From Desulfomonilia bacterium (GTDB lineage: Bacteria; Desulfobacterota; Desulfomonilia; UBA1062), in contig CAXXDQ010000008.1 in NCBI GenBank assembly GCA_963664325.2, forward strand, positions 32,001 to 96,000: a stretch of DNA of 64,000 bases, in the 5' to 3' direction. Position numbers and translations under genes: made by a program. Positions 34,247-59,370 of the stretch are shown here, one piece after another. Within the stretch, counting starts at the first letter, position 1; every line of letters begins with the position of its first letter. The notes below the pieces were generated by a model. That model did not search any database. It was given only the letters and a program-made list of their open reading frames with translations, and was not told the DNA's origin.

Positions 34247-35720
34247 ATGATTACAGGAAATCAGTATAAAGAAAGAATCGCCAAGTTGAGGCCGAACGTT
34301 TATCAGAAGGGGAAGTTGGTGGACCGTTTCGATCCGACGATTCAGGGCGGGATCAATGTCATGGCGGCCACGTATGACTTTGCCTCCGAGCCCGAGTTCA
34401 GCGGTGTCGGTGTGGCGACCTCCCATATCACGGGAGAGAAGATCAACCGTTATACCCATATCCATCAGACCATGGAGGATCTGCTGAACAAGCAGAAAAT
34501 GACGCGCCTGTACTGTCAGGAAGTGGGCGGCTGCATTCAGCGCTGCATGGGGATCGATGGGTTGAATGCTTTATCCATCGCCAGTTATGATGCGGATGTG
34601 AAGCATGGCACGAGCTATAACAAGAATTTTATCGAATTCATGAAAAAAGTGCAGGCGGAGGATCTCTCCCTGGTTTGTGCCCAGACGGACGTGAAAGGGA
34701 ACCGTCCCTGGCGTCCCGGAAAACAGCAGGACCCGGATCTCTATCTGCGGGTTGTTGAGAAGAGGCCGGATGGGATCATTGTTACCGGGGCCAAAGCACA
34801 TAATTCCTGTTCCGCTTATGCGGATGAGATTATCGTATTGCCACACGCGAAACATGGTTGCCGATGAAGGCGACTGGGCGGTGGCTTTTTCCATACCGGC
34901 CGACTGGGAAGGGGTGACGATCATCAATGGCGCTTTTTCACCCCCGCAGCGCAAGAAATTGGATGCCCCTTACAACAAACTGGGTATCTCTCACTCTCTG
35001 ACGGTATTCGACAAGGTTTTCATTCCCCGGGAGCGGGTCTTCCTGTGCGGGGAAACGGAGCAAGCGGGCAAAGCAGCCCTGTTTTTTGCCTTGTACCATC
35101 GCCATAGTTATTGCGGCTGCAAGGCGGCCTTGTCGGAGATCTTTACGGGCGCTACAGCGCTGGCGGCGGAGTACAACGGCATCGCGAACGCCCAGCATGT
35201 GCGGCATCAGTTGGCGGAGATGATTCAGATCGTGGACTTGATTTATGCCGCGGGTATTGCCGCAGCCATGAATTACACGAAGGCCGGTTCGGGCACGGCC
35301 ATCCCTGACACGAACTACTGCAATGCAGGGCGGATGCTGGCGGGAGAGGCGATTTACGGGGAATATGAAGCGTTGGCTGCGATCGCGGGCGGGCTGGCCG
35401 CGACGCTACCCCACGAGGAGGATTTCTATGATGAGAAGCTGGGTCCCTACCTGGAGAAATACATCATGCGGAATCCCGAGATTTCAGCGGAGAATCAGCA
35501 TCGGGCTTTTCGTCTGTTTCAGGACATGATGTCATCGGTGTGGGGCGGCCATAAGCTGATCGATGCGCTTCACGGCGGCGGCTCGCCGGTGATCGAGAAG
35601 GTGGCCATTTATCGTGATCACAATATCGAGCATTCCAAGAGTATTGCGAAGAAGCTGGCGGGCATTCCCTACGAAGGCTCGACGCGTGGCATCTTCCGGG
35701 AAAAGCGCTCCTGGTATTGA
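34247..35720 (+). CDS. 4-hydroxybutyryl-CoA dehydratase (AbfD)-like FeS flavoprotein, one frameshift
   Basis: CIQRCMGID, QTDVKGNR, GAKAH, HRHSYCGCK, HGGGSP. Confidence 0.8.
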
Positions 35721-35893
35721 TCGGATAGGTGCTTTTCACGGTAAAAGCAATTGAGGACTTCATTTAATAAGTCAATTCGGGAAGGCGCTTATGCCTTCCC
35801 GAAAATCCGATAACCGGGTTGCCCGGCCGTATCGGACGGTTTTGCGAATCGATTGGCTCCGAGGACAGGAGCGTGCGACAGGAGAAGTTTGCA

Positions 35894-37187
35894 ATGGAGA
35901 CAATAAAACCGGGGCCGCTTTCCGGCCTGACGGTACTGGATTTTACATGGGTTCTCGCGGGGCCTCATGCCACGAAAACGCTGACCGACATGGGAGCCCA
36001 TGTCATTAAAGTTGAACACTACAAAAATGGAACCAATGAACGGGCACAAAATCTCCGGGTTCAGCATAATGGTGTGATCCAAAGTTCCTACCACATCCAT
36101 CTGAACCGAGGGAAAAAAAGCACCTGCATCAATCTCAAGCATCCCAAGGGAATCGGAATCATCCATGGCTTGCTCAGGAAAAGCGACATCGTGATTGAAA
36201 ACTTTGCCCCGGGGGTTATGGACCGATTGAAGTTGGATTACGACTCAGTCAAGAAGATTAAGCCGGATATCATTTATTGTTCCATTTCTTGTTTTCGGCC
36301 ATTGGGGTCCCTACAGCCATAAACCGGGTTATGATGTCATTGCTCAAGCAGCAAGCGGATGGACAAGCCAAAGCGAGCCTCCTATCATGGCGCCTGTTTC
36401 GATCGGCGATACAACGGCGTCCATGCATGCCTGCACTGCCATCCTGGCTGCCGTCTATAACAGGATCATGACGGGGAAAGGACAAAACATCGATATCTCC
36501 ATGGTGGACTGTCTGTTCTCACTTCACGAGAATGCGGTTCCCTGGTTTTTTATCAGTGACGCAGCGGGTAATCCGGTCAGGATGCCCAGAACGGGTCAGA
36601 AAAGCCCGGCCAATGCCCCTTACGGAATCTACAACGCTAAAAACGGGTGCATTGCTATTGCCAGTCTCACGGCTAATCGCTGGCCGCAGCTCATTGAACT
36701 CATGGGACCGGAATATGCCTGGCTGAAGGAAGATCCCCGGCTGCAGGATCCTGCCAGCCGTATCAGTATGGAAAATGCGCCGCTGATTCATGAAGCCTTG
36801 GAGAGCTGGGTCCAGTCGCAGGATTCCGTCGAGGAGACCGAGAGAAAATTGGAGGATGCCGGGATTCCCTGTTCTCGGGTGAAAGACTTGATCGAACTGG
36901 CAACAGAGGACCCTCATATGGAGGCGAGGGAAATGCGGCCCGAGAGGTATCAACCCTTTATCGGGAACATGAAGATGTACGGCAGTCCTTTGAAATTCTC
37001 GGAAACGCCTTCCACGATTCGTGGATATGCGCCTCTCCTGGGAGAGCACAATCAAGAAATTCTCTCGACCTTTCTGAATTACTCTGATCGGGAGATAGAG
37101 TCGCTCTATCAAGAGGATGTTCTGTATCACGCTCCGGAAGTAGAGAAGCTGCCGGATGAATTGAAAAAGGCAAATAAACAGGAATAA
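35894..37187 (+). CDS. Family III CoA-transferase (CaiB/BaiF), one frameshift
   Basis: LAGPHAT, NRGKKS, ENFAPGV, GYDVIAQA, PLLGEHN. Confidence 0.9.
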
Positions 37188-42436: not shown

Positions 42437-43201
42437 ATGATGATCCTTGATCAATTCAGACTCAACGGCAAGACAGCCATCGTGACAGGCGCCCGGACCG
42501 GCCTGGGGCAGGGTATGGCCTGCGGCCTGGCAGAGGCCGGTGCCGACATTGTGGGCATTGATTTGACCGGCATGGAAGAAACGAAGAAGGCCATCGAGGG
42601 CCTGGGCAGGATTTTTTTGCCCGTGGAAGCCGATCTTTCGGATATACGGGTCATTGACGGCATCATGCAAAAAGCCGTTGCCGCCTTCGGCAAGGTCCAT
42701 ATCCTGATCAACAACGCCGGCATCATCCGCAGGACCGACGCCATCGAATTCAGCGAACAGGACTGGGATGAGGTCATGAATATCAACCTGAAAACGGTTT
42801 TTTTCTTTTCCCAGGCCGTGGCCCGGCAATTCCTCAAACAGGGCGGCGGCGGAAAGATCATCAATGTCGCATCGCTCCTTTCCTATCAGGGCGGAATCCG
42901 CGTCCCCTCCTACACGGCAAGTAAAAGCGGGGTCATGGGCATCACCCGGCTTATGGCAAACGAGTGGGCCGCCCATGCCATCAATGTCAACGCCATTGCG
43001 CCCGGCTATATGGCAACGGATAACACGGCGCCGCTGCGGGCGGACCCGAAGAGAAGCAGCGAGATCCTGGGCCGGATACCGGCAGGACGCTGGGGGTTGC
43101 CCGAGGATCTCAAAGGCGTGGCGGTCTTTCTGGCGTCTGCCGCCTCAAGCTACATAAACGGCTATACGATTGCCGTGGACGGCGGGTGGCTTGCGCGGTA
43201 A
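42437..43201 (+). CDS. kduD: 2-dehydro-3-deoxy-D-gluconate 5-dehydrogenase
   Basis: TGARTGLGQG, NNAGIIRR, QGGIRVPSYTASK, VDGGWLAR. Confidence 0.95.
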   Translation: MMILDQFRLNGKTAIVTGARTGLGQGMACGLAEAGADIVGIDLTGMEETKKAIEGLGRIFLPVEADLSDIRVIDGIMQKAVAAFGKVHILINNAGIIRRTDAIEFSEQDWDEVMNINLKTVFFFSQAVARQFLKQGGGGKIINVASLLSYQGGIRVPSYTASKSGVMGITRLMANEWAAHAINVNAIAPGYMATDNTAPLRADPKRSSEILGRIPAGRWGLPEDLKGVAVFLASAASSYINGYTIAVDGGWLAR

Positions 43202-44053: not shown

Positions 44054-44485
44054 GGCTCAATCCTATACCAAAAAAAAGTATAAGGCAAACGATTTCTGTT
44101 TATGGAATGGGGGAATGGGGGGGGGGACCCAATGCCCCATTCCATCTATTCATCCATGATCGGCGAATGAGCCCGAAGCGGTTTTTCTGACGGGGCCAGC
44201 TTTTACTATCTGCACGGATATGTACCCAAAATGAGTTGACGGCAAGTCTAGCTGCAATTTCGGCACTATCGGACAAGACAAAAGTGCTCAATACCATGGT
44301 ACTCAACGGCATTGTGCATTACCTAATATTTTTTGGCAGAAAATGGGGCTTTTGACAAAAATACGTCAGCGTCGTACGTGTTTTTGAATTTCTTATTGAA
44401 ATCAAATAGATGAAGCCTTTCGCATGGGAAAATTTTTTTTGCCTGTTTTTTCACCAATAATAGCAGGCCAGTATGAGGTCGTTTC

Positions 44486-45954
44486 CAATGTCATTGACTT
44501 AACGAATGGGTTTATAGGCGTAATAGAACTCCCTTTGGTTTTTATGGTCCCTTGGAAAGATTCTGCCTGCTCTGACGGGTTCTTTAGATCGAACAAATAA
44601 GCTTAGTAATTTATTTATTAAATCCAGAAGGTTGTGATGTTTAAAGAGGAGGACGATGGTGTCTTTCATTTTGGACAGGGCCTGAGTGACATTGATTTTG
44701 TAAGGATACTTTTTGGCATCGACTTGCTGATCGATGATATCCTGTGCCGGGAGAGTGAGAGCAGCCGTTATGTTCATGGCAAACATTTTGGCGTGGAAAT
44801 CCTGGTATATGGATTCGATGGTTTTGCCGGAGAAATTTTCAATTTGGACACGTTGCTTTGCCGTTTTAAAGTTTTCTTCAGCCATCCAGCGCAGGTGGTA
44901 GAGTTTTTTGAAAATACCATGAGGATAGCGCTTCGTGTCCATAAGTGAAGTGACCAGGATTTCGGTTTTTCCACCTTTGAGTTTCACTCTGATGGCGCGT
45001 ACCTGAAAAGGAACGATGGAGAGGTTTAGTTCATTACATTTTTTACGGGAGACCACGCTTGGATACAGGGTGATGATCTGTTCTTTATCCTGGGATAAAA
45101 AGAAGTTTCTGACCGAATCCCAATGAGCCTCCTTAATCCTGCTACAGAAATGCCCACCTTTGGCAAGAATCAGGGCGAAAAACCAGAATGCCGGGTAGCC
45201 TCTATCCAAAAGAACCAGGTCCCCTGTTCTGAACTGCTCTGCATGTGAAATGGCCAGAGATCTTTCTCCTTGCTCTTTTGGACAGATAAGAGCATCAACG
45301 ACAAGACCGTTTAAGACATCATGTAGCTGAGAGATTCTGGCGACAGGGCATTCACCACCCCTGTTTGAATGCCACACGCCGAAATGATCGGCAATCTTCC
45401 TGATTCTGGGGATTCGGACTGTTGAGCCATCGATGGCCATCAAGCGAAACCCTTTCCATTTCCGGCAGGAAAAGTGTTCATAGAAAAAGGAGATCAACTT
45501 CCGGTTCAGCGCGATAAAAGCTTGATGGCGAAGTTTTCTTCGGGCTTTGGTGAAGGCGCTTTTCGTGACCCTTCTTTCCGCCGTGTCTTTTTCATGAATG
45601 ATCTTGAAAAAATAATCCAATTCATCCTGAATGGAGCCCTTGATGAGATTAATGAGGAAAAAGATGATGGTGTGGAATGGAAGAATCCGTTGCCGGACAA
45701 AATCATTAGGACAGCGGCGGAATTGATCTAAAAAAGTTTGGGAAGTGATAATATTTTTAAGAAATTCAATAAGATTGGCACAATTTTTCAAACGCAGGTT
45801 CCATGCCACCTTGACCGTTTGTTTGAAGAATTTTTGACATTATTTTCTCCCTCCCGGAATTATTTTGCCTTCCATCAAAACCATGGCAAATATATCATAA
45901 CTACATGTATTTGCAAGCTAAATAAACAATTTATCCCTTAAGTCAATGGCATTG
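44486..45954 (-). mobile_element. IS4-family insertion sequence, copy A (1469 bp)
   Basis: TIRs CAATGTCATTGACTTAA / TTAAGTCAATGGCATTG; 10-bp direct repeat AGGTCGTTTC on both sides. Confidence 0.9.
44499..45809 (-). CDS. IS4-family DDE transposase
   Basis: AIDGS, LDRGY, Y..RW..E..FK (YREK) motifs. Confidence 0.92.
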   Translation of the reverse strand: MAWNLRLKNCANLIEFLKNIITSQTFLDQFRRCPNDFVRQRILPFHTIIFFLINLIKGSIQDELDYFFKIIHEKDTAERRVTKSAFTKARRKLRHQAFIALNRKLISFFYEHFSCRKWKGFRLMAIDGSTVRIPRIRKIADHFGVWHSNRGGECPVARISQLHDVLNGLVVDALICPKEQGERSLAISHAEQFRTGDLVLLDRGYPAFWFFALILAKGGHFCSRIKEAHWDSVRNFFLSQDKEQIITLYPSVVSRKKCNELNLSIVPFQVRAIRVKLKGGKTEILVTSLMDTKRYPHGIFKKLYHLRWMAEENFKTAKQRVQIENFSGKTIESIYQDFHAKMFAMNITAALTLPAQDIIDQQVDAKKYPYKINVTQALSKMKDTIVLLFKHHNLLDLINKLLSLFVRSKEPVRAGRIFPRDHKNQREFYYAYKPIR

Positions 45955-46172
45955 AGGTCGTTTCCAAGGTCATGGAGTTAGGCCCGATGGCTCCCCTCTT
46001 TGCAAAGAGATGGTGTCATGGATGAAAAATAATGACGGCGTTTTACGTTTCATGTCCACCGCCTATGACGATGAAGAAACCATTTCATTTTTTCTGGTCA
46101 AAAAACATGATTTAAAACCCTAAATAGGCCATTTATTTAAATATTAACTCATGATTTCCAATACTTAACTTG

Positions 46173-46347: not shown

Positions 46348-46455
46348 TGAAACATTGGGGTCAGCCCTTGACACGATGAAACATTGGGGTCAGTGAAACA
46401 TTGGGGTCAGCCCTTGACACGGGACAATATGCCTTCCAACACCTTCATTTCCTCG
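46348..46455. repeat. Triple tandem RAYT-element end fragment
   Basis: TGAAACATTGGGGTCAG at 46348, 46377, 46394; the last continues CCCTTGACACGGGACA...CCAACACCTTCATTTCC as at 51475. Confidence 0.85.
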
Positions 46456-46495
46456 ATCTGTATTGGTGTCCGTCTCCTCTTTTATTCGCCTCCCA

Positions 46496-47341
46496 TTAAG
46501 GGGACTTGGCAAGACGGAATCCTATATTTGCGTATCTTAAATCTTGACCGCAAAAGTGTCTTTTTATTGAAGTACAATCCTCTGCGCTGCTTATAGTACT
46601 GCCACCCCTGATACCCGCAGTTGAACCTGAATCGAAATCTTCACCCGAATATTGCACCCACTCAAAGACATTGCCTGCCATATCATAAAACCCCAAATCA
46701 TTTGGCTTCTTCTTTCCAACAGGATGATTTTTTCCTCCGGAATTTTTTTCGTACCAAGCATAATGTTCGAGGTCTTCAGTTTTACTTGTGCCAGCCCATC
46801 TTTCTTTTTTACCTCCACTGCGAGCTGCGTATTCCCATTCGGCTTCTGTTGGCATGCGATAATTCTGACCAGTTCTCATGTTTAATTTATGGATAAATTC
46901 TTTTATTTGGACCCAACTTACGTTTTCCACCGGGCATTCATCACCACAATTATCAAAATAAGACGGATTACCCAGCCATTTTTTTAATTGCTTATATATG
47001 CCGATAAAACTCAATTCCGTGGTGCTATTATTGGGTGTGTCGCTTAAAAAGCCCATCACTTGTTTCCACTGCCTTTGTGTAACTTCGTATTTTCCAAGAT
47101 AAAAGTCCCCAAGACAAACTTCTTTGACCGGTTCATTATTATAATTTTGTTGATCGACATATGTTAATGTTGCACCCATCTGATAACAGCCGCTTTTCAC
47201 GAGTATAAGCTCTATGGGTTCAATTTTACTTGGCGCCATGATCCAGACGGCAGCACAGGCAATAGAGATAAAAGCAATAAACAAGAACATCTTAAATACT
47301 TTTCTCGGGCTTGTAGGGTCGAATTGCTTGATTTTATGCAT
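46496..47341 (-). CDS. FGE-sulfatase (SUMF1/CLec-fold) domain protein with N-terminal membrane anchor
   Basis: YEVTQ, PVENVSW, RMPTEAEWEYAAR, DMAGNVFEW, RGGS...GFRLA; AT-rich. Confidence 0.85.
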   Translation of the reverse strand: MHKIKQFDPTSPRKVFKMFLFIAFISIACAAVWIMAPSKIEPIELILVKSGCYQMGATLTYVDQQNYNNEPVKEVCLGDFYLGKYEVTQRQWKQVMGFLSDTPNNSTTELSFIGIYKQLKKWLGNPSYFDNCGDECPVENVSWVQIKEFIHKLNMRTGQNYRMPTEAEWEYAARSGGKKERWAGTSKTEDLEHYAWYEKNSGGKNHPVGKKKPNDLGFYDMAGNVFEWVQYSGEDFDSGSTAGIRGGSTISSAEDCTSIKRHFCGQDLRYANIGFRLAKSP

Positions 47342-47609
47342 TTATATTGAATTGAATTGATTGTTAAATCTTATTGATAAGCACTCACTTTTTGAGGAAG
47401 GACTATAAGTAAAATGTTATTGTATGTCAAGGTAAAATTTCTACAATATTTAATGGTGATTGTAAATGCTTGGTGTAGTTCTGCCGAAGAGGGCATCATT
47501 TTTATAATTTGCCGCTTTTTTCGATGTTCGAGGAACTGCATTGGGGTCACCCATTAAAAGGCAGCTGTCAAGAGAAAAAAATACTTCCTGCACAATGAAG
47601 AGCTGTATT

Positions 47610-47766
47610 GGGGTCAGTCCTTGACACAGGACAATATGCCTTCCAACACCTTCATTTCCTCGTGCAAATCCGGATTCGTGGTCATTTCTTTTGCGAATCG
47701 CTGATAGGCTTTCGCTACCGCCGCTGTTCCCATACCCGTCAATGTCCCATGTCAAGGGCTGACCCC
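47610..47766. mobile_element. 157-bp non-autonomous mini-element (internal deletion derivative of the RAYT element)
   Basis: Left about 128 bp matches 51475-51601; right end AATGTCCCATGTCAAGGGCTGACCCC matches 52500-52525. Confidence 0.85.
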
Positions 47767-47776
47767 TTTGCGTCGA

Positions 47777-49660
47777 TTAAAAGGAGAAAAGGGTCCCATC
47801 TTCAAAGCGGCGGAGAAAGTGTCCCACGGAAAAGCCGCGTAAGAGTTTCGGCCAGTAACACCTCATTCCGCCATCTGCAGCAATCTGTTCGCCGGACCAC
47901 TGCATCATCTGTTCGAGTTTCTCCAGGTCCAGCGTCCGTGCCGCCAGATCGGCCTTTTTCATGCGGGCCAGCTCGGCAAGGGCCTCTTCCCTTTGCTTTT
48001 CAAAGTGGATAGGAAAGTCCGCCGCCTGGAGACCCCGGCGCTGCTCCGTGCGGACCTGTTCCGGCAGCCGGCCGACCATTGCATTACGGATCAGCGATCT
48101 GGGCACGCCCTTTTCGCAGTAGTATTCGACAGGCACGGAAAGGCAGAATTCAATCACTTTCCGGTCCGCGGTCGGATCAAGCCTCGAAATGCCTGTTAAG
48201 CGCCTGAACGCATCATAAACTGCTCCGACTTCAGGCCTGCGTAAATGGAGAATCCGCAACGCACTCGGGGAACGTTCATTGTTCCGGTCCAATGCCATGG
48301 AATCAAGTCCGTGACGATGGGCGAATTCGCGCCGGATCATGGAGTAGTCAAACAATCCTCTGGTGTTGCCTCGCGTTCTATTAATAAGACCGCGAAGTTC
48401 CAGCGGAATCCATGGAGTTAACGCTTCGTAAACGATACCGGGCCAGCGACGCGAACCGTAATGCCGCATATCCCGGGCCAGCCTGGTCATCGCCATAAAG
48501 CGTCTTTCTGATGCGAGCAGACACAGTGCCAGCCGGCCATTATAACTGATGCTGATGTTTCCTAAAGTTCCGACCAGGAGGGTGTCGAGTTTGAGTTGCC
48601 GCGCTTGCAGGCTGCTCTCATAGATCCAGTCATAGTTTGCCGGATTAAAGATCGGCTCCATCAGCTCCGCACTGAAGAGGTCCATCAATGCAAAGACGGA
48701 GTGGCGTCCATGGCGGACAAGAACATGGTCCACATTCGGCCACATCGCGGCGACCGATGCGGCGGCCTGGCCTTCGTCACAAAAACGCCCGGCGAGATCG
48801 GCCTCCGGGTGCACCGGGACCGCTGTGAAGGCATGGAGACGGCGGTTTTCATTGTTCAGGATTTCCGCAGCCAGGGAGGTTACGGTGGAGCTGTCCAGAC
48901 CTCCGCTCAACAGCGCGCCTGCGTCGGCACGAGCGGGCAAATGGTCACGGATAGCTTGCGTGAGTACATCCCGCAGCCCATCGGCATATTCCCTGGAATC
49001 CTTGAGATGAAGCGGCGAAATCTTTTCCGGGTGCCAGTAAACGTCTCGCGCAATTCGACCCTGCTCGAAGCTAAGGACGCTTCCCGGTATCATGCGATAG
49101 ACGTTTTCGAAGAAAGTGCTGTCGCTTCCGACATGGGTCAGGGAAAGCCAGCGGGCCAGGTAGTTTTCATTGATGCGGGGAGTCGTCCCCGCTGCCGCCA
49201 GCAGATCACGCAGGTCCCTGGCAAAGAAAAATGATTCACCGTGCTGCGCATAAAAAAGGGCAAAGCTTCCTTCCGGCCCGCATCCCAGCAGTAAGCGGGC
49301 TGCGGCCTGATCCCAGAGGGCAAAGACAAACTCTCCTTCGAGATATCCGGGAAACCCGGCACCCCACCTCCGGTACGCGCGAAGCAGAAGTTCCGGCTCG
49401 CTCAGCGGCCCTGCATCAAGTTGGGCGGCCAGTTCTCTTGAATTGCAGATCCTGCCGTCAAGGAGGATGCCAAAGTCGTCGGCACAGGCGCTGAAAGACT
49501 GTGCCTGAAGCTCGAGACGATAATTGCCCAGCTGGCAGAGCCGAACTGAACGCGCCTCCCTGATCCCTTGCACAGCGCCTTCAATCCCGACACGAGCCGA
49601 GACAACACCGCAGAAAGACGAAGGTTGCATGGCGCCTTCAGGTGGACTGGTTTGAATCAA
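47777..49660 (-). CDS. Asparagine synthetase-like lasso peptide cyclase (C protein)
   Basis: LSGGLDSS ATP-binding motif, degenerate glutaminase domain without N-terminal Cys, R..MVGRLP; adjacent to precursor, RRE and kinase. Confidence 0.8.
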   Translation of the reverse strand: MIQTSPPEGAMQPSSFCGVVSARVGIEGAVQGIREARSVRLCQLGNYRLELQAQSFSACADDFGILLDGRICNSRELAAQLDAGPLSEPELLLRAYRRWGAGFPGYLEGEFVFALWDQAAARLLLGCGPEGSFALFYAQHGESFFFARDLRDLLAAAGTTPRINENYLARWLSLTHVGSDSTFFENVYRMIPGSVLSFEQGRIARDVYWHPEKISPLHLKDSREYADGLRDVLTQAIRDHLPARADAGALLSGGLDSSTVTSLAAEILNNENRRLHAFTAVPVHPEADLAGRFCDEGQAAASVAAMWPNVDHVLVRHGRHSVFALMDLFSAELMEPIFNPANYDWIYESSLQARQLKLDTLLVGTLGNISISYNGRLALCLLASERRFMAMTRLARDMRHYGSRRWPGIVYEALTPWIPLELRGLINRTRGNTRGLFDYSMIRREFAHRHGLDSMALDRNNERSPSALRILHLRRPEVGAVYDAFRRLTGISRLDPTADRKVIEFCLSVPVEYYCEKGVPRSLIRNAMVGRLPEQVRTEQRRGLQAADFPIHFEKQREEALAELARMKKADLAARTLDLEKLEQMMQWSGEQIAADGGMRCYWPKLLRGFSVGHFLRRFEDGTLFSF

Positions 49661-49710
49661 CCGGTTTATTTTGCGACACTTCTTTTGAAGCTGAATTTCC
49701 AGCGGCCACG

Positions 49711-49866
49711 CTATGAAAAATGTAAATCAATATCAGATGATGGATCTACGAACCCTTCTTCGGTTTGATCCACGTCCATTTCCTCAAACGCTGGTGTCTG
49801 CCACGGTTTAAGTTCCGTTACTTCCTTGTTTGGGGAGAAAATCACAAGGCGAGAGTCTTCTTTCAT
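49711..49866 (-). CDS. Paeninodin-like lasso peptide precursor (51 aa)
   Basis: RBS AGGAGG; MKEDSRLVIFSPNKEVTELKPWQTPAFEEMDVDQTE-EGFVDPSSDIDLHFS; WxxPxxExxDVxxT leader motif, C-terminal Ser. Confidence 0.8.
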   Translation of the reverse strand: MKEDSRLVIFSPNKEVTELKPWQTPAFEEMDVDQTEEGFVDPSSDIDLHFS

Positions 49867-50019
49867 GTTTCCTCCTGAAGGCCTAATCAAAGGCGATTTT
49901 GAAAAGTGGATGTTGGCACTACCTGCACACCCGAAACGTGGCAAAGGATATCGGAGCTGCCATCGTGCTGTCAAGGAAAAGTTACGGCATCATGGCATTA
50001 TTGCATGATTATATGTTGT

Positions 50020-50310
50020 TTATACGATAGCGATCAGCCTCTTGGCGATCATGCCTTTCAAAAAATCCGCCACACCTGTCCGGCATTGCTCCTCTTCCAC
50101 CCTGTATTCAGTCAGCAGCGCCGCCACGATATCCTTCATGGCGAGCGGTTTTTCGATCAAATCCCAGATCCGGCTCGCCACAGCGTCCAGACTGTAGTAT
50201 TTTCCGTTTTCAATGCTCATCATCACCCATTGGCCGTCCATGTCAGTGGCAACGATCCCGGCCGCACGAACCACTAAGGTATCAGCACTCAGTATCTGCT
50301 TTAATGTCAT
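50020..50310 (-). CDS. PqqD-family RiPP recognition element (B1)
   Basis: DMDG..VMMSIENGKYYSLD.VASRIWDLI...LLTEYRV. Confidence 0.9.
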   Translation of the reverse strand: MTLKQILSADTLVVRAAGIVATDMDGQWVMMSIENGKYYSLDAVASRIWDLIEKPLAMKDIVAALLTEYRVEEEQCRTGVADFLKGMIAKRLIAIV

Positions 50311-51349
50311 TCTTCAAATATCCTTTACTTTTCGCATGGTTAGGGTTAGCGCCGGAAATAGGTCCCGCCATCAGTTCCTCCACCAATTGCGCCTGTTTCG
50401 CAACGGAAAACTTTCCGCTGGGCCTCAGCAAACGGCAGACCTGAATCTGCTTCGACACGACCGCGCAACGTCTAAAATGCTCTGTTTTTAAGCCCAGCCC
50501 GGCCAACAGAAATCGTCGATAGGTATGCCTGAAGAGCACCGCGATTTTGTCCGGACCCGCGAGCCGAATCATGGCGGCCTCGGGACGGTTCTCGGCCCGC
50601 AGTTCAAAGATCGACGCCAAACGGATTGGATTCCGACAAAACCCCGTGTCCACGGCCACGGCATATTTGTCCATCCCTGACAGGATCGTCGGAAACGCGC
50701 TGACATCCATTCCCATATTATCCGCGCTGTCTTTCCACAGTTTCTGCTGCGGATAGCCGGGTTGCACGCAGGGCACATTTCCTTCGCCTATGGTTACGAC
50801 CGACACGTCATCGCTCAGAAAACCGGAGCCGCGATCCCGCAACGCCGCCACCAGGGTGGACTTACCCGCCCCGGAAGTTCCTGTAATGATTGCGGCTTGC
50901 CCTTTGATCTCGACGGCGCTTCCGTGGATCGGCAAAACCCCGCGCTGCATGAGCAGAGCGCCGAAAGCCGTCCCGAGAAGGAATAATCTGATCCTGCGGG
51001 GTTCAGCCGCCTGATCGGGCTCTACAACGATTCGCTTTCCGTCGGCGACATAGTAACGGCCCGCCTGCGCCGCGCGGAGGAGAAACTGGTTTGCGGCCGC
51101 CTGATAACGGTCATTGCTGACCAGTGCTTCCGGAATTTCCTGCGGTGTTTCGCCCAAAACGATCCGCACATCAGGAACCCCCTCCGTTGTTTCGAGCTCG
51201 TGGAAGAAGATATCCGAAGCGATATTCACGCCGAACGCCCGGAAAAGGAAAGGCTGTCCGCGGCCATGGATTGTTCGTCCCCCATAACCCGGGGTATGGA
51301 TGGCCTTCGATTTGAGATCTCGCAAATCCGAGCATTGTTGAGGATTCAT
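50282..51349 (-). CDS. HPr kinase-like lasso peptide kinase (PadeK-like; start uncertain)
   Basis: LLMQRGVLPIHGSA, GTSGAGKST, LSDD, PGYPQQKLW. Confidence 0.8.
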   Translation of the reverse strand: MNPQQCSDLRDLKSKAIHTPGYGGRTIHGRGQPFLFRAFGVNIASDIFFHELETTEGVPDVRIVLGETPQEIPEALVSNDRYQAAANQFLLRAAQAGRYYVADGKRIVVEPDQAAEPRRIRLFLLGTAFGALLMQRGVLPIHGSAVEIKGQAAIITGTSGAGKSTLVAALRDRGSGFLSDDVSVVTIGEGNVPCVQPGYPQQKLWKDSADNMGMDVSAFPTILSGMDKYAVAVDTGFCRNPIRLASIFELRAENRPEAAMIRLAGPDKIAVLFRHTYRRFLLAGLGLKTEHFRRCAVVSKQIQVCRLLRPSGKFSVAKQAQLVEELMAGPISGANPNHAKSKGYLKNDIKADTEC

Positions 51350-51474
51350 ACTGCTAAACTTACCGGTATTATTTGATAAGATTCGCTGTGCTGTTTTGTC
51401 GGCGAGTATAAGTGAGACCTCGTGGGAATGTCAACCCAAAATTGACCACCCCTGAGTGTGATGGCGAGTGTGAT

Positions 51475-52525
51475 GGGGTCAGCCCTTGACACGGGACAAA
51501 TTGCCCTCCAACACCTTCATTTCCTTCTGCAAATCCGGATTCGTGGTCAGCTCTTTTGCGAATCGCTGATAGGCTTTCGCTACCGCCGCTGTTCCCATAC
51601 CCGCCAATAAATCGCCAATCTCCCGGTTGGTGGCGCTTGTATGTTTTTTCAGAAGATAAAGGCATCTTCTCTTGATGTCATTTCGCTCCCTGTTTATCAC
51701 TGATTTCAATGTAAGTCCGTAATGAGAACATAATGCTGAAACAATCTCCTCCGGCAGCAGTTTTGCACGCAAAATCCTCCGGTTCGATATGTCTGCCTTT
51801 GTCAGTCGTATTGCTTCTATCTTCCTCAATACTTCTTTGATAAAATCCGAACCGCCAAGAATAATTCCTCCGTAGACTTTCTTAAAGGGGCTTTCGATTT
51901 CCCCTCCCAATGCACTCTCCACAAAGGACTTGTACTTCGTTTTGGCCGCATCCGGATTGGACTCAAGCATTGCCAGAATGGTTGTGGTGTCGACAAGACT
52001 GTCGCTATTCATCGTCGTATAGGCATTGTAGCTGCTGTATGGATAATCTTCCGGTTTTTCCACTATCTTCGCCCGAACGGGATTAAGGTGCAGATATCTG
52101 CTCAATTCAAGAAGGTAGCTGTCTCTTTCAACGACGATTGATTTGAACCGGCCTTGGAAAAGATGGCCACTGCGCTTTCTTTTAATATTGCCATACGTGG
52201 TGTAAGAACCGTTTATATAATGCATCACCTTGCTGAGATTCTTCTCCGGTGTCTCAATAAGCAGATGATAGTGGTTCGTCATAAGGACGTATCCCCGGAT
52301 AATGACCCCATATTTTTCCACGGCAGCCGCAAGGTATTCCTTGAATTTTTCGTAATCCCTTTGGCTAAAGAATATCTTCTGACGCTCATTTCCACGGGCT
52401 GTCACATGGAAAATTGCACCTTCGTATTCAATCCGTAACGGTCTTGCCACTTTTTCACCGCCAATCAATGGCCAGGAAATATGATGGTTTGTCTTGTGAA
52501 ATGTCCCATGTCAAGGGCTGACCCC
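51475..52525 (-). mobile_element. RAYT-like Y1 HUH element with 24-bp terminal inverted repeats (1051 bp)
   Basis: Left GGGGTCAGCCCTTGACACGGGACA, right TGTCCCATGTCAAGGGCTGACCCC (1 mismatch); the transposase stop codon lies in the left repeat. Confidence 0.8.
51479..52468 (-). CDS. REP-associated tyrosine transposase-like protein (Y1_Tnp plus C-terminal HTH)
   Basis: ARPLRIEY, HVTARGN, MTNHYHLL (HUH), FQGRFKS, RYLHLNPVRA, YPYSSY. Confidence 0.9.
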   Translation of the reverse strand: MIGGEKVARPLRIEYEGAIFHVTARGNERQKIFFSQRDYEKFKEYLAAAVEKYGVIIRGYVLMTNHYHLLIETPEKNLSKVMHYINGSYTTYGNIKRKRSGHLFQGRFKSIVVERDSYLLELSRYLHLNPVRAKIVEKPEDYPYSSYNAYTTMNSDSLVDTTTILAMLESNPDAAKTKYKSFVESALGGEIESPFKKVYGGIILGGSDFIKEVLRKIEAIRLTKADISNRRILRAKLLPEEIVSALCSHYGLTLKSVINRERNDIKRRCLYLLKKHTSATNREIGDLLAGMGTAAVAKAYQRFAKELTTNPDLQKEMKVLEGNLSRVKG

Positions 52526-52532
52526 TTTGCTT

Positions 52533-52833
52533 CCTTGCTGAGATTCTTCTCCCGGTGTCTCAATAAGCAGATCGATAGTTTCCGTCATAAGGACGTATCC
52601 CCGGATAATGACTCCATATTTCTTCACGGCAGCCCGCAAACGTATTCCTTGAATTTTTCGTAATCCCTTTGGCTAAAGAATATCTTCTGACGCTCATTTC
52701 CACGGGCTGTCACATGGAAAATTGCACCCTCATATTCAATCCGTAAGGGTCTTGCCACTTTTTCACCGCCAATCAATGGCCAGGAAATATGATGGTTTGT
52801 CTTGTGAAATGTCCCATGTCAAGGGCTGACCCC
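52533..52833 (-). repeat. Tandem degenerate duplicate of the RAYT 5' portion and right end
   Basis: Repeats about 52228-52525 with several indels, ending GTCAAGGGCTGACCCC TTTGC. Confidence 0.8.
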
Positions 52834-52869
52834 TTTGCTTCTGCATTTTCTGGTCTCTTTCGTGAGTTA

Positions 52870-54007
52870 TCAATGTGATTATTCTTAATCGCTGCGCAAA
52901 TCAGGCAACAATCTCAAGTACGGGTTCTTACTCGGAAATTTGTCATCGGAAGTCATTATCCCAATCGTAGCCATACGGGATGGTGCAATGGGTACAGTAT
53001 ATTTCATCTATGCGGTGAGCCATCGTGGACACGGTGAACGTCTATCAGCCATGTTGACGACTTCGTTACCCCCAGCATACTCCCCATCCGGCGAAACGGC
53101 TGCACTGAATCGATCAGAGCCGCCATCGAGATACCCTGTCTGATGGTTTCCGTCCTGTGCGAATAGAGATAATATTTTCCCGCAAGGCCGGCTGCTCGTA
53201 AAAAAGAGACGTTGTGCCGTCTTTACTCAACAAGAGGCTTTTGATAGGAGGATGTCCCTTTTTCAAAAAGATGGTAGGGCCGCTGGGGTAAAACATCTCC
53301 ATGCCTTTCATGGTGAGAACGCCAACGAGGTAAACGTTATTCTTTCTCGCTTCTTCCCAGTATCAATCCTCTTTTGCTGGCATTAGGCGCTCATCGTTTC
53401 GGCATGACGTTAGTCCGGGGAAAGGCAAAGGGTCAGTTCTGCATAGTAGAGGAACTTCTCGTCATCGCCGGGGAATATAACAAACGCTAACCCATATAGG
53501 AAGTATTCATAGAATGCGTCAGACTGGGTTTCTTTTCGCCTGTTTCCAGATATCCACTTCCCAGGCGTCGTATCCCGATGCCGGTGTTCCACGGCCCTGT
53601 CTTCCTGATGCGGCTGGCACTTTCACATACAGGACCTTCTTCCCGGATTGTGAGAAAATGCCGGGTATAGAGCTTAGGGAAAGGGCTGGAGGTGAGTTTC
53701 CGGTAAAGTTTTTGCCATCTGTATCCATGACGGCAATCTGCATCTCGCATTAGATCGAAATTTTTTTCACCTAACGGGTATGGTACGGAAAAGACGTAAT
53801 TTTCGATCCCATCATAGGAATACTTTCGCCATGGTCCAGCGTTGCTCCTTTCGGCGGCGGCTGGTAGGCGTTGCCAGTTCTCCCGTTTGCAAGATCATAG
53901 ACCTGAATCTGGCAGTCTATAATCCCGGCAACGATCAAAAAACAAGTTTCTTACCATCGTGTGAAAAACTGAGATGATCAATGGTGATCTTTTATTTTAT
54001 CTGTCAT
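52870..54007 (-). pseudogene. Fragmented TolB/PD40 beta-propeller-like gene
   Basis: RBS AGGAGG, MTDKIKITIDHLSFSHDGKKLVF..., QIAVMDTDGKN, FSQSGKKVLY, AVSPDG in different frames; 3' end approximate. Confidence 0.5.
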
Positions 54008-54133
54008 GGCACAGTCGCACAACCTCCTATAGACATTGTTAAAATAGAGACGGGAAGAATAAAAAATAACAACAACAATTGTCTCGTCATTTGGCTGCGT
54101 GTCTGAAGTATCTGGGGCGGAAATAGCAATTTG

Positions 54134-54153
54134 GGGTCGTACCAAGTTAAGTA
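54134..54153. repeat. Second arm of the 20-bp inverted repeat
   Basis: GGGTCGTACCAAGTTAAGTA. Confidence 0.7.
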
Positions 54154-54263
54154 GCTTAGATATCTCAGGTGATATTCCATGTTAACCCCCTGTTTTTATG
54201 CCCAAAATCATCATTTTTGGCGTCAAAATGAACATCTTCACAATGGCACGGCCATCTCCCAGC

Positions 54264-54616
54264 TCACTGGATCTTTATCCTCTCTTCATTGGCCGGCTGC
54301 GGGGCCGAGATATCGATAGAATGCCGTTGGCCGCTTCATAACGGCGGATGAGGTTGCCCAGCATGACGGCCATGCGCTTTGCCGTCTTCAACGATACGGC
54401 CATTTTGGCTTCTATGCGGACGGTTTTGGGATCTATGGATGAATTGCCGAACAGAAATACGACTGCTTCCGGCCCGAAGCCGATGTTGAAGACGCCCGCG
54501 TATTGCGTTTTCACGCCTTCCTCGATAAACCGGACCGGCGTTTGCCCCGGCCCGTCACCTTCCTGTCTTTCCGCTTTTTGCCTTTGCTTATCCTGTGAAT
54601 TGTCGTTTTGGTCCAT
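54264..54616 (-). CDS. DUF3467-like small protein, copy 1 (indel near the 3' end)
   Basis: TQYAGVFNIG..PEAVVFLFG...SLKTAKRMA..L...IRRYEAANG. Confidence 0.7.
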
Positions 54617-54973
54617 GATACCAAGCTCTCCCTCTTATTTTTTCACGTTTGGGTTGTCTCTGTAAGCATATCAGCCACTCGGATTGTGTTTATTTTTAAA
54701 GGACTTTTATTGTTTTTTCCGGGTAACGATTGTGACAAGAGCGTTAAAACAAATAAGGTATCATTTAACACTATGCCGAAAATGACATAATGAGTTTTTT
54801 ATGTCAAGGGAAAATTTCATCATTTTGACTCATTTAATATCAAAGGTATGTAATATTATAATTGATAAAATGTATTAAATATATTACCAATACCTTGACC
54901 TAGGTTTAAAACATCAGGATCAGATTGATAAGAATAGCAATTAATGTATTGCGGAATGCTTTGATTGGCTTTT

Positions 54974-55035
54974 TAACACGGCGCTGCTGCGGCCGGAGCC
55001 GAAAAGAAGCAGCGAGATCCTGGGGCGGATACCGG
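54974..55035 (+). repeat. Displaced 62-bp copy of a kduD segment (43021-43082)
   Basis: 57/62 identical by manual alignment. Confidence 0.85.
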
Positions 55036-55308
55036 ATGAGCAAAGAACGGATATGTACGCAAAATGAGTTGACGGCAAGTCTTGCCGCAATTTCGGCACT
55101 ATCGGACAAGACAAAGATGCTCAATGCCATGGTACTAGGCATTACCTAATATTTTTTGGCAAAAAATGGGGCCTTTGACAAAAATACGTCAGCGTCGTAC
55201 GTGTTTTTGAATTTCGTATTGAATTCGTATAGATGAAGCTTTTCACATGGGAAAATTTTTTTTGCCTGTTTTTCCGCCAATAATAGCAGGTCAGTATGAG
55301 GTCGTTTC

Positions 55309-56777
55309 CAATGTCATTGACTTAACGAATGGGTTTATAGGCGTAATAGAACTCCCTTTGGATTTTATGGTCCCTTGGGAAAGTCCTCCCCGTCCTGACG
55401 GGTTCTTTAGAGCGAACAAATAAGCTTAGTAATTTATTTATTAAATCCAGAAGGTTGTGATGTTTAAAGAGGAGGACGATGGTGTCTTTCATTTTGGACA
55501 GGGCCTGAGTGACATTGATTTTGTAAGGATACTTTTTGGCATCGACTTGCTGATCGATGATATCCTGTGCCGGGAGAGTGAGAGCAGCCGTTATGTTCAT
55601 GGCAAACATTTTGGCGTGAAAATCCTGGTAAATGGATTCGATGGTTTTACCGGAGAAATTTTCAATTTGGACACGTTGCTTTGCCGTTTTAAAGTTTTCT
55701 TCAGCCACCCAGCGCAGGTGGTAGAGTTTTTTGAAAATACCATGAGGATAGCGCTTCGTGTCCATAAGTGAAGTGACCAGGATTTCGGTTTTTCCACCTT
55801 TGAGTTTCACCCTGATGGCGCGTACCTGAAAGGGAACGATGGAGAGATTCAATTCATTACATTTTTTGCGGGATACCAAGCTTGGATACAGGGTGATGAT
55901 CTGTTCTTTATCCTGGGATAAAAAGAAGTTTCTGACCGAATCCCAATGAGCCTCCTTAATCCTGCTACAGAAATGCCCACCTTTGGCAAGAATCAGGGCG
56001 AAAAACCAGAATGCCGGGTAGCCTCTATCCAAAAGAACCAGGTCCCCTGCTCTGAACTGCTCTGCATGTGAAATGGCCAGTGATCTTTCTCCTTGCTCTT
56101 TGGGACAGATAAGAGCATCAACGACAAGACCGTTTAAGACATCATGTAGCTGAGAGATTCTGGCGACAGGGCATTCACCTCCCCTGTTTGAATGCCACAC
56201 GCCGAAATGATCGGCAATCTTCCTGATTCTGGGTATTCGGACCGTCGAGCCATCTATGGCCATCAAGCGAAACCCTTTCCATTTCCGACAGGAAAAATGT
56301 TCATAGAAAAAGGAGATCAACTTCCGGTTCAGCGCGATAAAAGCTTGATGGCGAAGTTTTCTTCGGGCTTTGGTGAAGGCGCTTTTCGTGACCCCTCTTT
56401 CAGCAGTGTCTTTTTCATGCATGATCTTGAAAAAATAATCCAATTCATCCTGAATGGAGCCCTTGATGAGATTAATGAGGAAAAAGATGATGGTGTGGAA
56501 TGGAAGAATCCGTTGTCGGACAAAATCATTAGGACAGCGGCGGAATTGATCTAAAAAAGTTTGGGAAGTGATAATATTTTTAAGGAATTCAATAAGATTG
56601 GCACAATTTTTCAAACGCAGGTTCCATGCCACCTTGACCGTTTGTTTGAAGAATTTTTGACATTATTTTCTCCCTCCCGGAATTATTTTGCCTTCCATCA
56701 AAACCATGGCAAATATATCATAACTACATGTATTTGCAAGCTAAATAAACAATTTATCCCTTAAGTCAATGGCATTG
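55309..56777 (-). mobile_element. IS4-family insertion sequence, copy B (1469 bp)
   Basis: Same TIRs and same AGGTCGTTTC direct repeats as copy A. Confidence 0.9.
55322..56632 (-). CDS. IS4-family DDE transposase
   Basis: 436 aa, 8 substitutions vs copy A. Confidence 0.92.
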   Translation of the reverse strand: MAWNLRLKNCANLIEFLKNIITSQTFLDQFRRCPNDFVRQRILPFHTIIFFLINLIKGSIQDELDYFFKIMHEKDTAERGVTKSAFTKARRKLRHQAFIALNRKLISFFYEHFSCRKWKGFRLMAIDGSTVRIPRIRKIADHFGVWHSNRGGECPVARISQLHDVLNGLVVDALICPKEQGERSLAISHAEQFRAGDLVLLDRGYPAFWFFALILAKGGHFCSRIKEAHWDSVRNFFLSQDKEQIITLYPSLVSRKKCNELNLSIVPFQVRAIRVKLKGGKTEILVTSLMDTKRYPHGIFKKLYHLRWVAEENFKTAKQRVQIENFSGKTIESIYQDFHAKMFAMNITAALTLPAQDIIDQQVDAKKYPYKINVTQALSKMKDTIVLLFKHHNLLDLINKLLSLFVRSKEPVRTGRTFPRDHKIQREFYYAYKPIR

Positions 56778-56946
56778 AGGTCGTTTCCAAGGTCATGGAG
56801 TTAAGGATGATTCCTCTCATGTCCTCCGCCGGCGGCGGATATGAGAGGAATGCCTTCAGTTAATCGCATGAAGGTGATCTCCGGGCATTACTTTGGCCCT
56901 GCCTTCATCCCCCCATTATGCGCATCATCGCAATCCAGCCACATAC

Positions 56947-57021
56947 TGAAACAACGGGGTCACCCCTTGACACGGGACATTATGCCCTCCAACACCTCCA
57001 CCTTCTGCAATCCTGTATCCG
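56947..57021. repeat. Diverged RAYT-element left-end fragment
   Basis: TGAAACAACGGGGTCACCCCTTGACACGGGACATTATGCCCTCCAACACC. Confidence 0.8.
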
Positions 57022-57046
57022 TAGTTTTGCAATGTCGCTTTCCCGC

Positions 57047-57418
57047 TCACTGGATCTTTATCCTCTCTTCATTTGCGGGCTGCGGGGCCGAGATATCGAT
57101 GGTGCCGTTGGCCGCTTCATAACGGCGGATGAGGTTGCCCAGCATGACGGCCATGCGCTTTGCCGTCTTCAACGATACGGCCATTTTGGATTCTATCTGC
57201 ACAGTCCTGGGGTCCAGGGATGAATTCCCGAAGATAAACAGCACCGCATCCGGTCCGAAGCCGATGTTGAAGACCCCGGCATACTGCGTCTTGACGCCTT
57301 CTTCGATAAACCGGACCGGCTTTTGCCATTGCCCCAGTCCGTCATCTTCGTGTCTTGCCGCTTTTTGCTTCTGCTTGTCTTGGGCCCTCTTTTCTATATA
57401 AAATAACGGCAGCCGCAT
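57047..57418 (-). CDS. DUF3467-like small protein, copy 2 (start uncertain)
   Basis: Close paralog of 54264-54616. Confidence 0.7.
   Translation of the reverse strand: MRLPLFYIEKRAQDKQKQKAARHEDDGLGQWQKPVRFIEEGVKTQYAGVFNIGFGPDAVLFIFGNSSLDPRTVQIESKMAVSLKTAKRMAVMLGNLIRRYEAANGTIDISAPQPANEERIKIQ

Positions 57419-57489: not shown

Positions 57490-59370
<1,881 letters not shown>

Follow-up and report, generated by a model that had tools for sequence, protein, structure and literature searches.

A probable TIRtron and its derivative copies beside a lasso-peptide operon in a Desulfomonilia genome

Introduction

TIRtrons are elements in which a RAYT-like gene lies between terminal inverted repeats (TIRs) that carry the motif GGGGWSAS; they and their gene product, the TIRYT (TIR-associated tyrosine transposase), were defined by Di Nocera, De Gregorio & Rocco (2013, BMC Genomics 14:522; PMC3733652). 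According to the parts of that description consulted, the repeats may overlap the 5' or 3' end of the gene, and they form families of moderate size whose copies are single, dimeric or grouped (PMC3733652). A later classification, as far as consulted, gives subclass 2.1.2 of the TnpA_REP-like proteins a Bac_DnaA_C-like tail and places in subclass 2.1 20 of 26 'TIRYT' examples, which have flanking inverted repeats with GGGG[AT][CG]A[CG] (Quentin et al. 2018; PMC6006769). No TIRYT biochemistry is reported in the portions of the TIRtron literature consulted. Here we analyse a repeat-bounded nuclease gene, and the broken copies of its repeats, in a 64,000-nucleotide stretch of DNA from a Desulfomonilia bacterium (GCA_963664325.2), a 4.3-Mb assembly in nine contigs. 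The stretch comprises positions 32001-96000 of contig C8 (CAXXDQ010000008.1) and is called the window throughout; coordinates are given within it. We put at roughly 0.8 the probability that the intact copy, designated copy C, belongs among the TIRtrons, as a small one-gene mobile element whose product is a TIRYT. The architecture is not new, having been named TIRYT/TIRtron in 2013, and nothing at this locus differs from it in kind.

Other systems built on short repeats provide the background for this assignment. The repeats of classical REP or REPIN systems are short GTAG-headed palindromes, of which a genome carries tens to hundreds. IS200/IS605 elements end in non-identical subterminal hairpins and lack inverted repeats. 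An integron consists of an IntI tyrosine recombinase beside an attI site, together with an array of attC-bounded cassettes. REPIN-RAYT systems, also called REP-TnpA_REP systems, are reportedly treated in work by Nunvar (2010), Bertels and Rainey (2011), Ton-Hoang (2012) and Messing (2012), the last of these being associated with structure 4er8.

One intact element and four derivatives

A predicted Y1 HUH nuclease gene lies between inverted copies of the 24-mer GGGGTCAGCCCTTGACAYGGGACA, and partial copies of the same unit lie on both sides of it. Self-comparison plus tblastn resolved these copies into one intact element (copy C) and four derivatives (copies A, B, D and E). Copy C, its parts and the derivatives are located as follows.

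51475..52525, minus strand: copy C, the intact predicted TIRtron, 1051 bp from tip to tip, bounded by an inverted pair of 24 nt
51475..51498, plus strand: left terminal repeat of copy C, at the 3' end of the gene, with the stop codon inside it; it codes for SRVKG-stop
52502..52525, minus strand: right terminal repeat of copy C, at the 5' end of the gene, 51 nt upstream of the GTG start
51479..52450, minus strand: TIRYT gene, 323 amino acids from GTG, with a predicted N-terminal Y1 HUH nuclease and a predicted C-terminal helix-turn-helix (HTH) like DnaA domain IV
46348..46455, plus strand: copy A, a solo left end, cut off about 53 nt inside the repeat tip
47604..47774, no strand assigned: copy B, a gene-less 171-bp doublet, an internal-deletion form
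52533..52841, minus strand: copy D, a decayed tandem duplicate (308 bp) of 52228-52533, the promoter-side end
56947..57010, plus strand: copy E, a second solo left end of, like copy A, roughly 60 bp, cut off at about the same point as copy A (~53-58 nt)

The 24-mer is confined almost to this neighbourhood. In the window it has seven matches at up to 3 mismatches, compared with a mean of 0.00 in 100 shuffles; by position, strand and mismatches these are 46403 (+, 0), 47610 (+, 2), 47743 (-, 0), 51475 (+, 0), 52502 (-, 0), 52810 (-, 0) and 56956 (+, 1). All left-type ends stand on the plus strand and all right-type ends on the minus strand. A search of the whole assembly, as the initial annotation had proposed, returned ten matches at up to 4 mismatches, eight of them within one 10.6-kb stretch; the remaining two, with 3 and 4 mismatches, are members of a related, paralogous repeat family. 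That annotation had described a Y1 gene bounded by a 24-bp inverted repeat, and the two arms of copy C (51475-51498 and 52502-52525) are indeed 96% complementary (23/24). The window search also recovered every further copy of the end that it listed. Its count of three copies at 46357-46425 needs amending: one is a full 24-mer, and the other two are tandem partial tips.

The repeats are true terminal inverted repeats. The tip reads GGGGTCAG, compatible with the published GGGGWSAS motif, and the repeat-end stretch around the candidate nick site reads GAAGCAAA-GGGGTCAGCCC... Single ends fold no better than shuffled sequence (z from -0.5 to +0.4, with 46-125 of 200 shuffles folding as well or better), which argues for inverted repeats and not REP palindromes, and agrees with the earlier view that the ends are TIRs and not hairpins. 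Two further ideas about the repeat were rejected. A covarying stem in the tip, AAGG(T/G)...(G/C)CCTT, fails in the GGGGTCAGGTC families, and single ends fold like shuffles. The TTGACA within the repeat was considered as a -35 box, and a promoter scan gave sites only outside the repeats.

We explain copies A, B, D and E as probable deletion, duplication and truncation products of the TIRtron. Copy D runs from the first ~80 codons of the gene through the sequence upstream of it and the right repeat (52810-52833) to 8 bases of flank; it is 95.5% identical to its source over 310 columns, and its tblastn pieces show frame breaks. In copy B some 140 nt of the left end, including the last 41 codons, are fused at an AAT microhomology to a right end of 34 nt. 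This copy is 92.6% identical to copy C over 135 nt and 97% identical to the right end over 34 nt, tblastn recovers amino acids 288-328 from it at 85%, and as single-stranded DNA it folds into a hairpin with a 24-bp stem (-24.4 kcal/mol, z -2.2). In front of copy A stand two partial tips in tandem, TGAAACATTGGGGTCAG plus 11 more bases and then TGAAACATTGGGGTCAG alone, and one of the tip-duplication junctions falls directly after GGGGTCAG. Copy E is 88.9% identical to copy A over 54 nt and 86% identical to copy C over 58 nt. Copies A and E have the 7-nt outer flank TGAAACA in common, and they lie about 40 nt past the stops of minus-strand FGE and DUF3467 genes, respectively, the same placement that the nuclease gene has relative to its own left end.

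The nuclease

The encoded protein is predicted to be a RAYT-type Y1 HUH nuclease fused to an HTH like DnaA domain IV. The open reading frame (ORF) spans 51479-52468 on the minus strand, 329 codons from an upstream TTG at 52468. Alignment with 16 relatives makes the GTG at 52450 the likely start, giving a protein that would begin MARPLRIEY. Pfam identifies Y1_Tnp at 3.4e-13. The NCBIfam model REP_Tyr_transpos scores 84 bits, passing its cut-off of 80, and transpos_IS200 reaches 21.9 bits, far under its cut-off of 55; the RAYT-like Y1 HUH identity proposed in the initial annotation thus stands. The predicted catalytic HUH and tyrosine motifs are intact: in the 17-sequence alignment N59, H60, Y61 and H62 are invariant, as is R118, and Y119 (in SRYxHLNP) is nearly so.

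Profile searches of solved structures support both halves of this assignment. The N-terminal part of the 17-sequence profile matches the E. coli TnpAREP structure 4er8 at 3.4e-4, and its C-terminal third (positions 211-318) matches DnaA domain IV chains at 5.6e-10 to 5.8e-7. Against ISDra2 TnpA chains the same profile gives E values of only 0.46-0.54. A single-sequence search of solved structures returned no matches. Matched on its described features, the nuclease appears to correspond to TnpA_REP-like subclass 2.1(.2).

Distribution of the repeat and the gene

The exact 24-mer recurs far beyond this genome. It is present in 62 stretches of other species' genomes, belonging to several phyla by their record titles; all 62 come from metagenome-assembled genomes (MAGs), and some of the phylum labels may be binning errors. 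Five of these loci are full elements whose repeat spacing (952-1019) matches that of copy C and whose proteins, 43-50% identical to the window's, all end in SRVKG-stop. Another 13 are doublets with a spacing of 28-241 and the GGGG always outward, and the other ends, more than 40, are unpaired. Conservation ends exactly at the outer GGGG, and the flanks beyond the 24-mer are A-rich with no other consensus. One 133-bp doublet occurs in three MAGs with unrelated flanks and identical tips, its similarity bounded exactly by GGGG and CCCC. This one doublet in three contexts supports mobility at the level of the family. No consistent target-site duplication was found at the flanks of doublets and full elements; possible flank duplications are GCTTCC on both sides of the doublet at locus L048 and a 5-of-6 match at the doublet at L074.

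Copies are few in each genome and lie close together. Five genomes hold 10, 4, 2, 9 and 1 copies, and the overall range is 1-14 per genome. In the phylum the motif is found in 39 of 401 genomes and 31 of 255 genera, with reversed-pattern controls giving 0 in every genome; it is found in none of the 13 sampled genomes of the same family or class. Elsewhere, too, copies cluster within a few kb, often in accessory DNA with insertion sequence (IS), toxin-antitoxin and RHS genes. The combination of a right end and a gene stub seen in copy D recurs in genome G257, where a broken TIRYT gene has two ends next to it, 323 bp from each other, and in genome G168, where three right-end-plus-stub units of 140-149 nt lie inside an RHS-associated repeat array. 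Tip duplications occur both in the window and in G168, one of them reading GGGGTCAG joined directly to GGGGTCAG.

Homologues of the nuclease are found in 27 of 41 related genomes, the present one (G000) included, the best being 51% identical. At least 11 of 19 fetched homologue loci have inverted copies of a GG[GT]GTCAG-type repeat on both sides of the gene or upstream of it, and several of the homologue loci carry tandem arrays with a period of 32-39 nt. Two other full-length paralogues in the genome, about 40% identical, are flanked by a sister repeat, GGTGTCAGGCCTT..., whose motif occurs 33 times, compared with 5 in the reversed-genome control. Adjacent to one of them, paralogue C3a, is a 180-bp doublet made of an end and a 124-nt gene stub. 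In 29 plasmid records, sequences annotated 'transposase' match the N-terminal part of the protein, and in none of the 29 does the match cover 80% of it. Two further repeat families are placed as follows.

C3:842976-844656, C4:490963-491025, C5:44293-44934 and several positions in C7: sister repeat family (AAAGGTGTCAGGCCTT[TG]A..CTTGACAAA), flanking the two paralogous TIRYT genes and occurring as doublets and singles
47543..47574 of the window, plus strand: head of a second repeat family (GGGGTCACCCATTAAAAGGCAGCTGTCAAGAG, GGGGWSAS-type), 36 nt before copy B

Copies of the GGGGTCACCCATTAAAAGGCAGCTGTCAAGAG head are also present in contigs C3 (1031381) and C7 (57175-57204) and in two same-genus genomes. 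A head resembling GGGGTCACCCATTAAAAGGCAGCTGTCAAGAG follows the 24-mer by about 20 nt at four loci of other genomes (L038, L049, L072 and L094). On contig C5, two sister-repeat doublets bracket a small ORF of about 520 nt. At L117 (1856-8939), downstream of an RHS-repeat ORF, are partly repeated modules, three of which carry a right repeat, the first TIRYT codons and small tandem tip duplications. At L118 (1429-4325) a group II intron with a reverse transcriptase and maturase ORF splits a TIRYT gene within a normal repeat pair.

Comparison with described systems

Copy C is placed among TIRtrons because of its RAYT-type protein, the DnaA-like HTH and a repeat start, GGGGTCAG, that fits GGGGWSAS. 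Like a TIRYT, the Y1 HUH protein is RAYT-like and longer than RAYTs, with a Bac_DnaA_C-like C-terminus. As in TIRtrons, terminal inverted repeats flank the gene instead of REP hairpins, the 3' repeat overlaps the gene, and gene-less copies occur as singles, dimers and groups in moderate numbers. Particular to this TIRtron are a 24-mer that is letter-perfect across phyla, with proteins down to 43-50% identity, the SRVKG-stop C-terminus encoded by the repeat itself, and an unusually dense local cluster of derivative copies. An end of 24 bp that stays constant across phyla while the protein drifts is a testable clue to end recognition.

REPIN-RAYT systems share with the element the type of N-terminal domain (an NCBIfam equivalog above its cut-off and a profile match to 4er8), inverted cognate repeats around the gene, and gene-less doublets foldable as long hairpins in the manner of REPINs. 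They differ from it in several respects: the TIRtron unit repeat is no palindrome with a GTAG head, copies number 1-14 per genome and not tens to hundreds, the TIRYT has the additional DnaA-like HTH domain, and the distribution is patchy and cross-phylum, unlike long vertical inheritance. Membership of the classical REP/REPIN-RAYT class was rejected, because the 4.3-Mb genome has only 8 whole or partial copies, confined to one region, and a single repeat forms no significant hairpin.

With IS200/IS605 elements (TnpA of IS608 and ISDra2) the TIRtron has in common the expected Y1 HUH chemistry, the lack of an observed fixed target duplication and the single local orientation of its copies; its ends, however, are inverted repeats and not different subterminal hairpins. 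Together with the IS200 model score and the ISDra2 TnpA E values given above, these ends led us to reject IS200/IS605 membership. The likeness to integrons is superficial only and consists in short foldable repeats between genes of the same orientation. Here there is no IntI-type recombinase, no attI and no long same-orientation array, and the repeats belong to an autonomous element, whose ends they form, and to its deletion products. The scanned ORFs of 26-64 kb include no integrase-family domain, and just two gene sets are bracketed.

Proposed mechanism

We propose a mechanism by analogy with TnpA of IS608/ISDra2 and with TnpAREP, Y1 HUH enzymes of established biochemistry. The HTH would anchor the protein on the repeat, either as duplex DNA or as the 24-bp stem of two same-strand repeats. 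The HUH/Tyr119 centre would then nick and rejoin one strand at or beside GGGGTCAG; duplication junctions right after GGGGTCAG in two unrelated genomes suggest such a nick site. No fixed target duplication would accompany the movement of the repeat-bounded unit. Doublets, stubs (50-300 nt of gene attached to an end) and tandem tip duplications would be left behind by internal deletions and by events that slipped or aborted, and end-plus-stub copies in several genomes suggest that abortive events occur. New copies would tend to land within a few kb of old ones, perhaps by reinsertion into existing repeats. The window would then hold one element plus its debris in an unstable, IS-rich, rearranged and compositionally mosaic island. 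By-products A, B, D and E, lying in the intergenic DNA of that island, would flank the FGE gene and the lasso operon by happenstance. The practical value of the case lies in the concrete predictions it allows about how the ends are recognised and where the nick falls.

Genomic surroundings

The neighbouring features that bear on the origin of the copies lie outside the TIRtron.

44214..45981, minus strand: IS4-family element with duplicated flanks, copy 1 (NCBIfam transpos_IS4_1, 7.8e-49)
55047..56804, minus strand: IS4-family element with duplicated flanks, copy 2
46496..47341, minus strand: FGE-sulfatase-domain gene between copies A and B (Pfam FGE-sulfatase, 2.4e-39; local GC content 40%)
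47777..51349, minus strand: lasso-peptide operon between copies B and C, with HPr-kinase-like, PqqD/B1, 51-amino-acid precursor and Asn-synthase-like cyclase genes

Base composition is mosaic, with a GC content of 42-43% in the IS4 elements, 40-44% in the FGE segment and 54-57% in the lasso genes. The lasso precursor, MKEDSRLV...DLHFS, is encoded inside the ORF 49711-49974, and no separate B2 protease ORF was recognised in the operon. A strong promoter-like site, TTGACA-18-TATACT, lies between copy C and the first lasso gene, and the FGE gene also has its own promoter-like site. The nearest relatives of the cyclase are metagenomic (51-71% identity); 40 relatives and 400 genomes of the phylum contain no close homologue, the best being 29% identical. 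Three same-genus genomes have almost no DNA similarity to the window over 30-64 kb, and the collections searched contain no relative close enough to reveal breakpoints. Rfam and tRNA scans of 40-62 kb found nothing.

Alternative explanations

The initial annotation went beyond the repeats to suggest that the nuclease captures or shuffles neighbouring genes, giving an integron-like array without an integrase. The nuclease would on this proposal use any correctly oriented pair of ends and move or swap the genes between them; TIRYT ends would be portable cleavage and joining sites for picking up or exchanging adjacent genes, and units such as the one at locus L043, or the solo end, FGE gene and doublet of the window, would be real composites. 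If true, it would mean single-strand, Y1-driven gene shuffling in accessory islands. The FGE-domain gene does lie between two ends, as described, and the end at 47743-47766 does stop 10 bp from the cyclase stop at 47777. Solo left end A forms a formally valid oriented pair with the right end of copy C or D, the ~40-nt distance of solo ends A and E from minus-strand gene stops resembles the placement of the nuclease gene, and GC content shifts across copy B. Other genomes add a few arrangements of this kind. At L043 (94-1977), a very AT-rich contig labelled Clostridia, the order is repeat, PolyA_pol-domain gene, repeat, TIRYT and inverted repeat, with all three GC-rich repeats exact; the PolyA_pol-domain gene fills the gap between the first two 24-mers and ends ...LSRVKG-stop within the repeat. 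At L097 a related precursor and cyclase, with no kinase or PqqD gene, have a 48-bp doublet 177 bp upstream, a dihydroorotate-dehydrogenase-like gene at L121 stands between two right-type ends beside a TIRtron, and L120 likewise has a single gene between ends. The broader survey points the other way. Although the lasso cluster is bracketed by a right end (47766) and a left end (51475), the ends of the two neighbouring elements point away from it, which puts the operon outside both; it has its own promoter-like site and is not shown to be cargo. A related cyclase is encoded at 14 metagenome loci, and the fetched flanks of only one of them, L097, include an end at up to 6 mismatches; those of the other 13 do not. 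L098 and L100, with the same lasso gene order, and L096, with an insert, have no such ends, and the FGE homologue loci of relatives (L030-L032) have no matching ends. The 62 exact-repeat loci contain 18 oriented pairs, 5 enclosing the nuclease gene alone and 13 enclosing no gene, with the extra outer end of L043 as the sole exception; a 2.9-kb pair in genome G368 proves to be a TIRtron into which a group II intron has inserted. The same passenger never turned up with the same ends at two sites, deletion and duplication account for the local copies, and REP-like repeats are in any case commonly intergenic. We regard gene capture by these ends, and composites of the L043 or FGE kind, as highly improbable. 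The description of the locus was right, and the mechanistic extrapolation from it is unsupported: broken copies are scattered between genes, without evidence of moving those genes.

The block might instead have been shaped, and perhaps delivered, by IS4 elements and segmental duplication, with the two direct IS4 copies bounding a 9-kb segment like a composite transposon and copies A and E co-duplicated. The IS4 blocks, which share one orientation, match at 96.2% identity over 1767 nt; 143-413 nt after each comes a solo TIRtron left end with the same cut-off point and the shared flank TGAAACA. Additional pieces are duplicated, namely 54259-54595 and 57042-57382, which hold two DUF3467 genes (86% identical), and a 62-nt segment at 43021-43082 and 54974-55035, the 3' part of an SDR gene, beside IS4 copy 2. 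However, the similarity of the IS4 copies extends past their own inverted repeats, by about 270 nt on one side and about 27 nt on the other, and they have the same flanking direct repeat, (TG)AGGTCGTTTC; this indicates duplication of a block and not two insertions. No target duplication was seen around the 12.6-kb whole, though no search was aimed at one. Copies B, C and D are left unexplained, and we consider an IS4 origin of the arrangement quite unlikely. A domesticated, immobile gene is a different prospect: a RAYT-like nuclease retained by the host, with repeats that serve as binding or structural sites and are not currently transposed. It would suit the single intact copy in the genome, the low copy number everywhere (1-14 per genome) and the general view of RAYTs as domesticated, as given in the part of the source consulted (PMC5581495). 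The patchy distribution (31/255 genera; 0/13 same-family or same-class genomes) fits it poorly, as do a nearest relative whose protein is just 51% identical, exact repeats in several phyla and an identical doublet in three contexts. Contigs from the sample also reach a summed depth of 10-16 over the element, compared with 3-4 on its flanks, and include variant copies. Domestication seems unlikely to us.

The reading of copy C as a mobile TIRtron has its own difficulties. The single-sequence Pfam match to Bac_DnaA_C (1.2e-4, 22.4 bits) lies under the gathering score of 31.5, so the DnaA-like HTH call rests on the 17-sequence profile. Only the duplication junctions, known from two genomes, point to the nick position. 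This DNA is present in a single sample, whose public contigs are broken at the repeats and contain no excision product or clean empty site of copy C. Two contig forms there join the left 24-mer to the right 24-mer directly or with 10 letters between, and they may come from other loci or organisms. Just one intact copy was assembled in the genome, which leaves present-day activity unproven and would allow a domesticated role. The arrangements at L097, L043 and L121 fit cargo movement as well as they fit chance.

Contigs of other organisms are summed in the raised depth over the element, so the extra depth means more copies in the community and not excision at this locus. An apparent 7.8-kb 'joint' from 46444 to 54262 in the same contigs was rejected, since contigs of the paralogous copy E, with the second DUF3467 gene next to it, account for it.

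The locus carries a caution for annotation. Short repeats of this kind around a biosynthetic cluster, such as those beside the lasso operon, are probably satellites of a small mobile element and not the boundaries of the cluster.

Other features of the window

Several genes farther from copy C appear split or truncated. In the segment 33019-37187, HpaB is divided between 34247-34867 and 34752-35720, a family III CoA-transferase is divided between 35819-36322 and 36387-37187, and a periplasmic binding protein matches its 343-position profile over the first 133 positions only; such split or shortened genes may be frameshifts, pseudogenes or assembly errors. On the other side, a carbamoyltransferase ORF at 57966-59309 (plus strand) matches only positions 171-345 of a 346-position N-terminal domain profile and may be 5'-truncated, beside solo end E and a DUF3467 copy.

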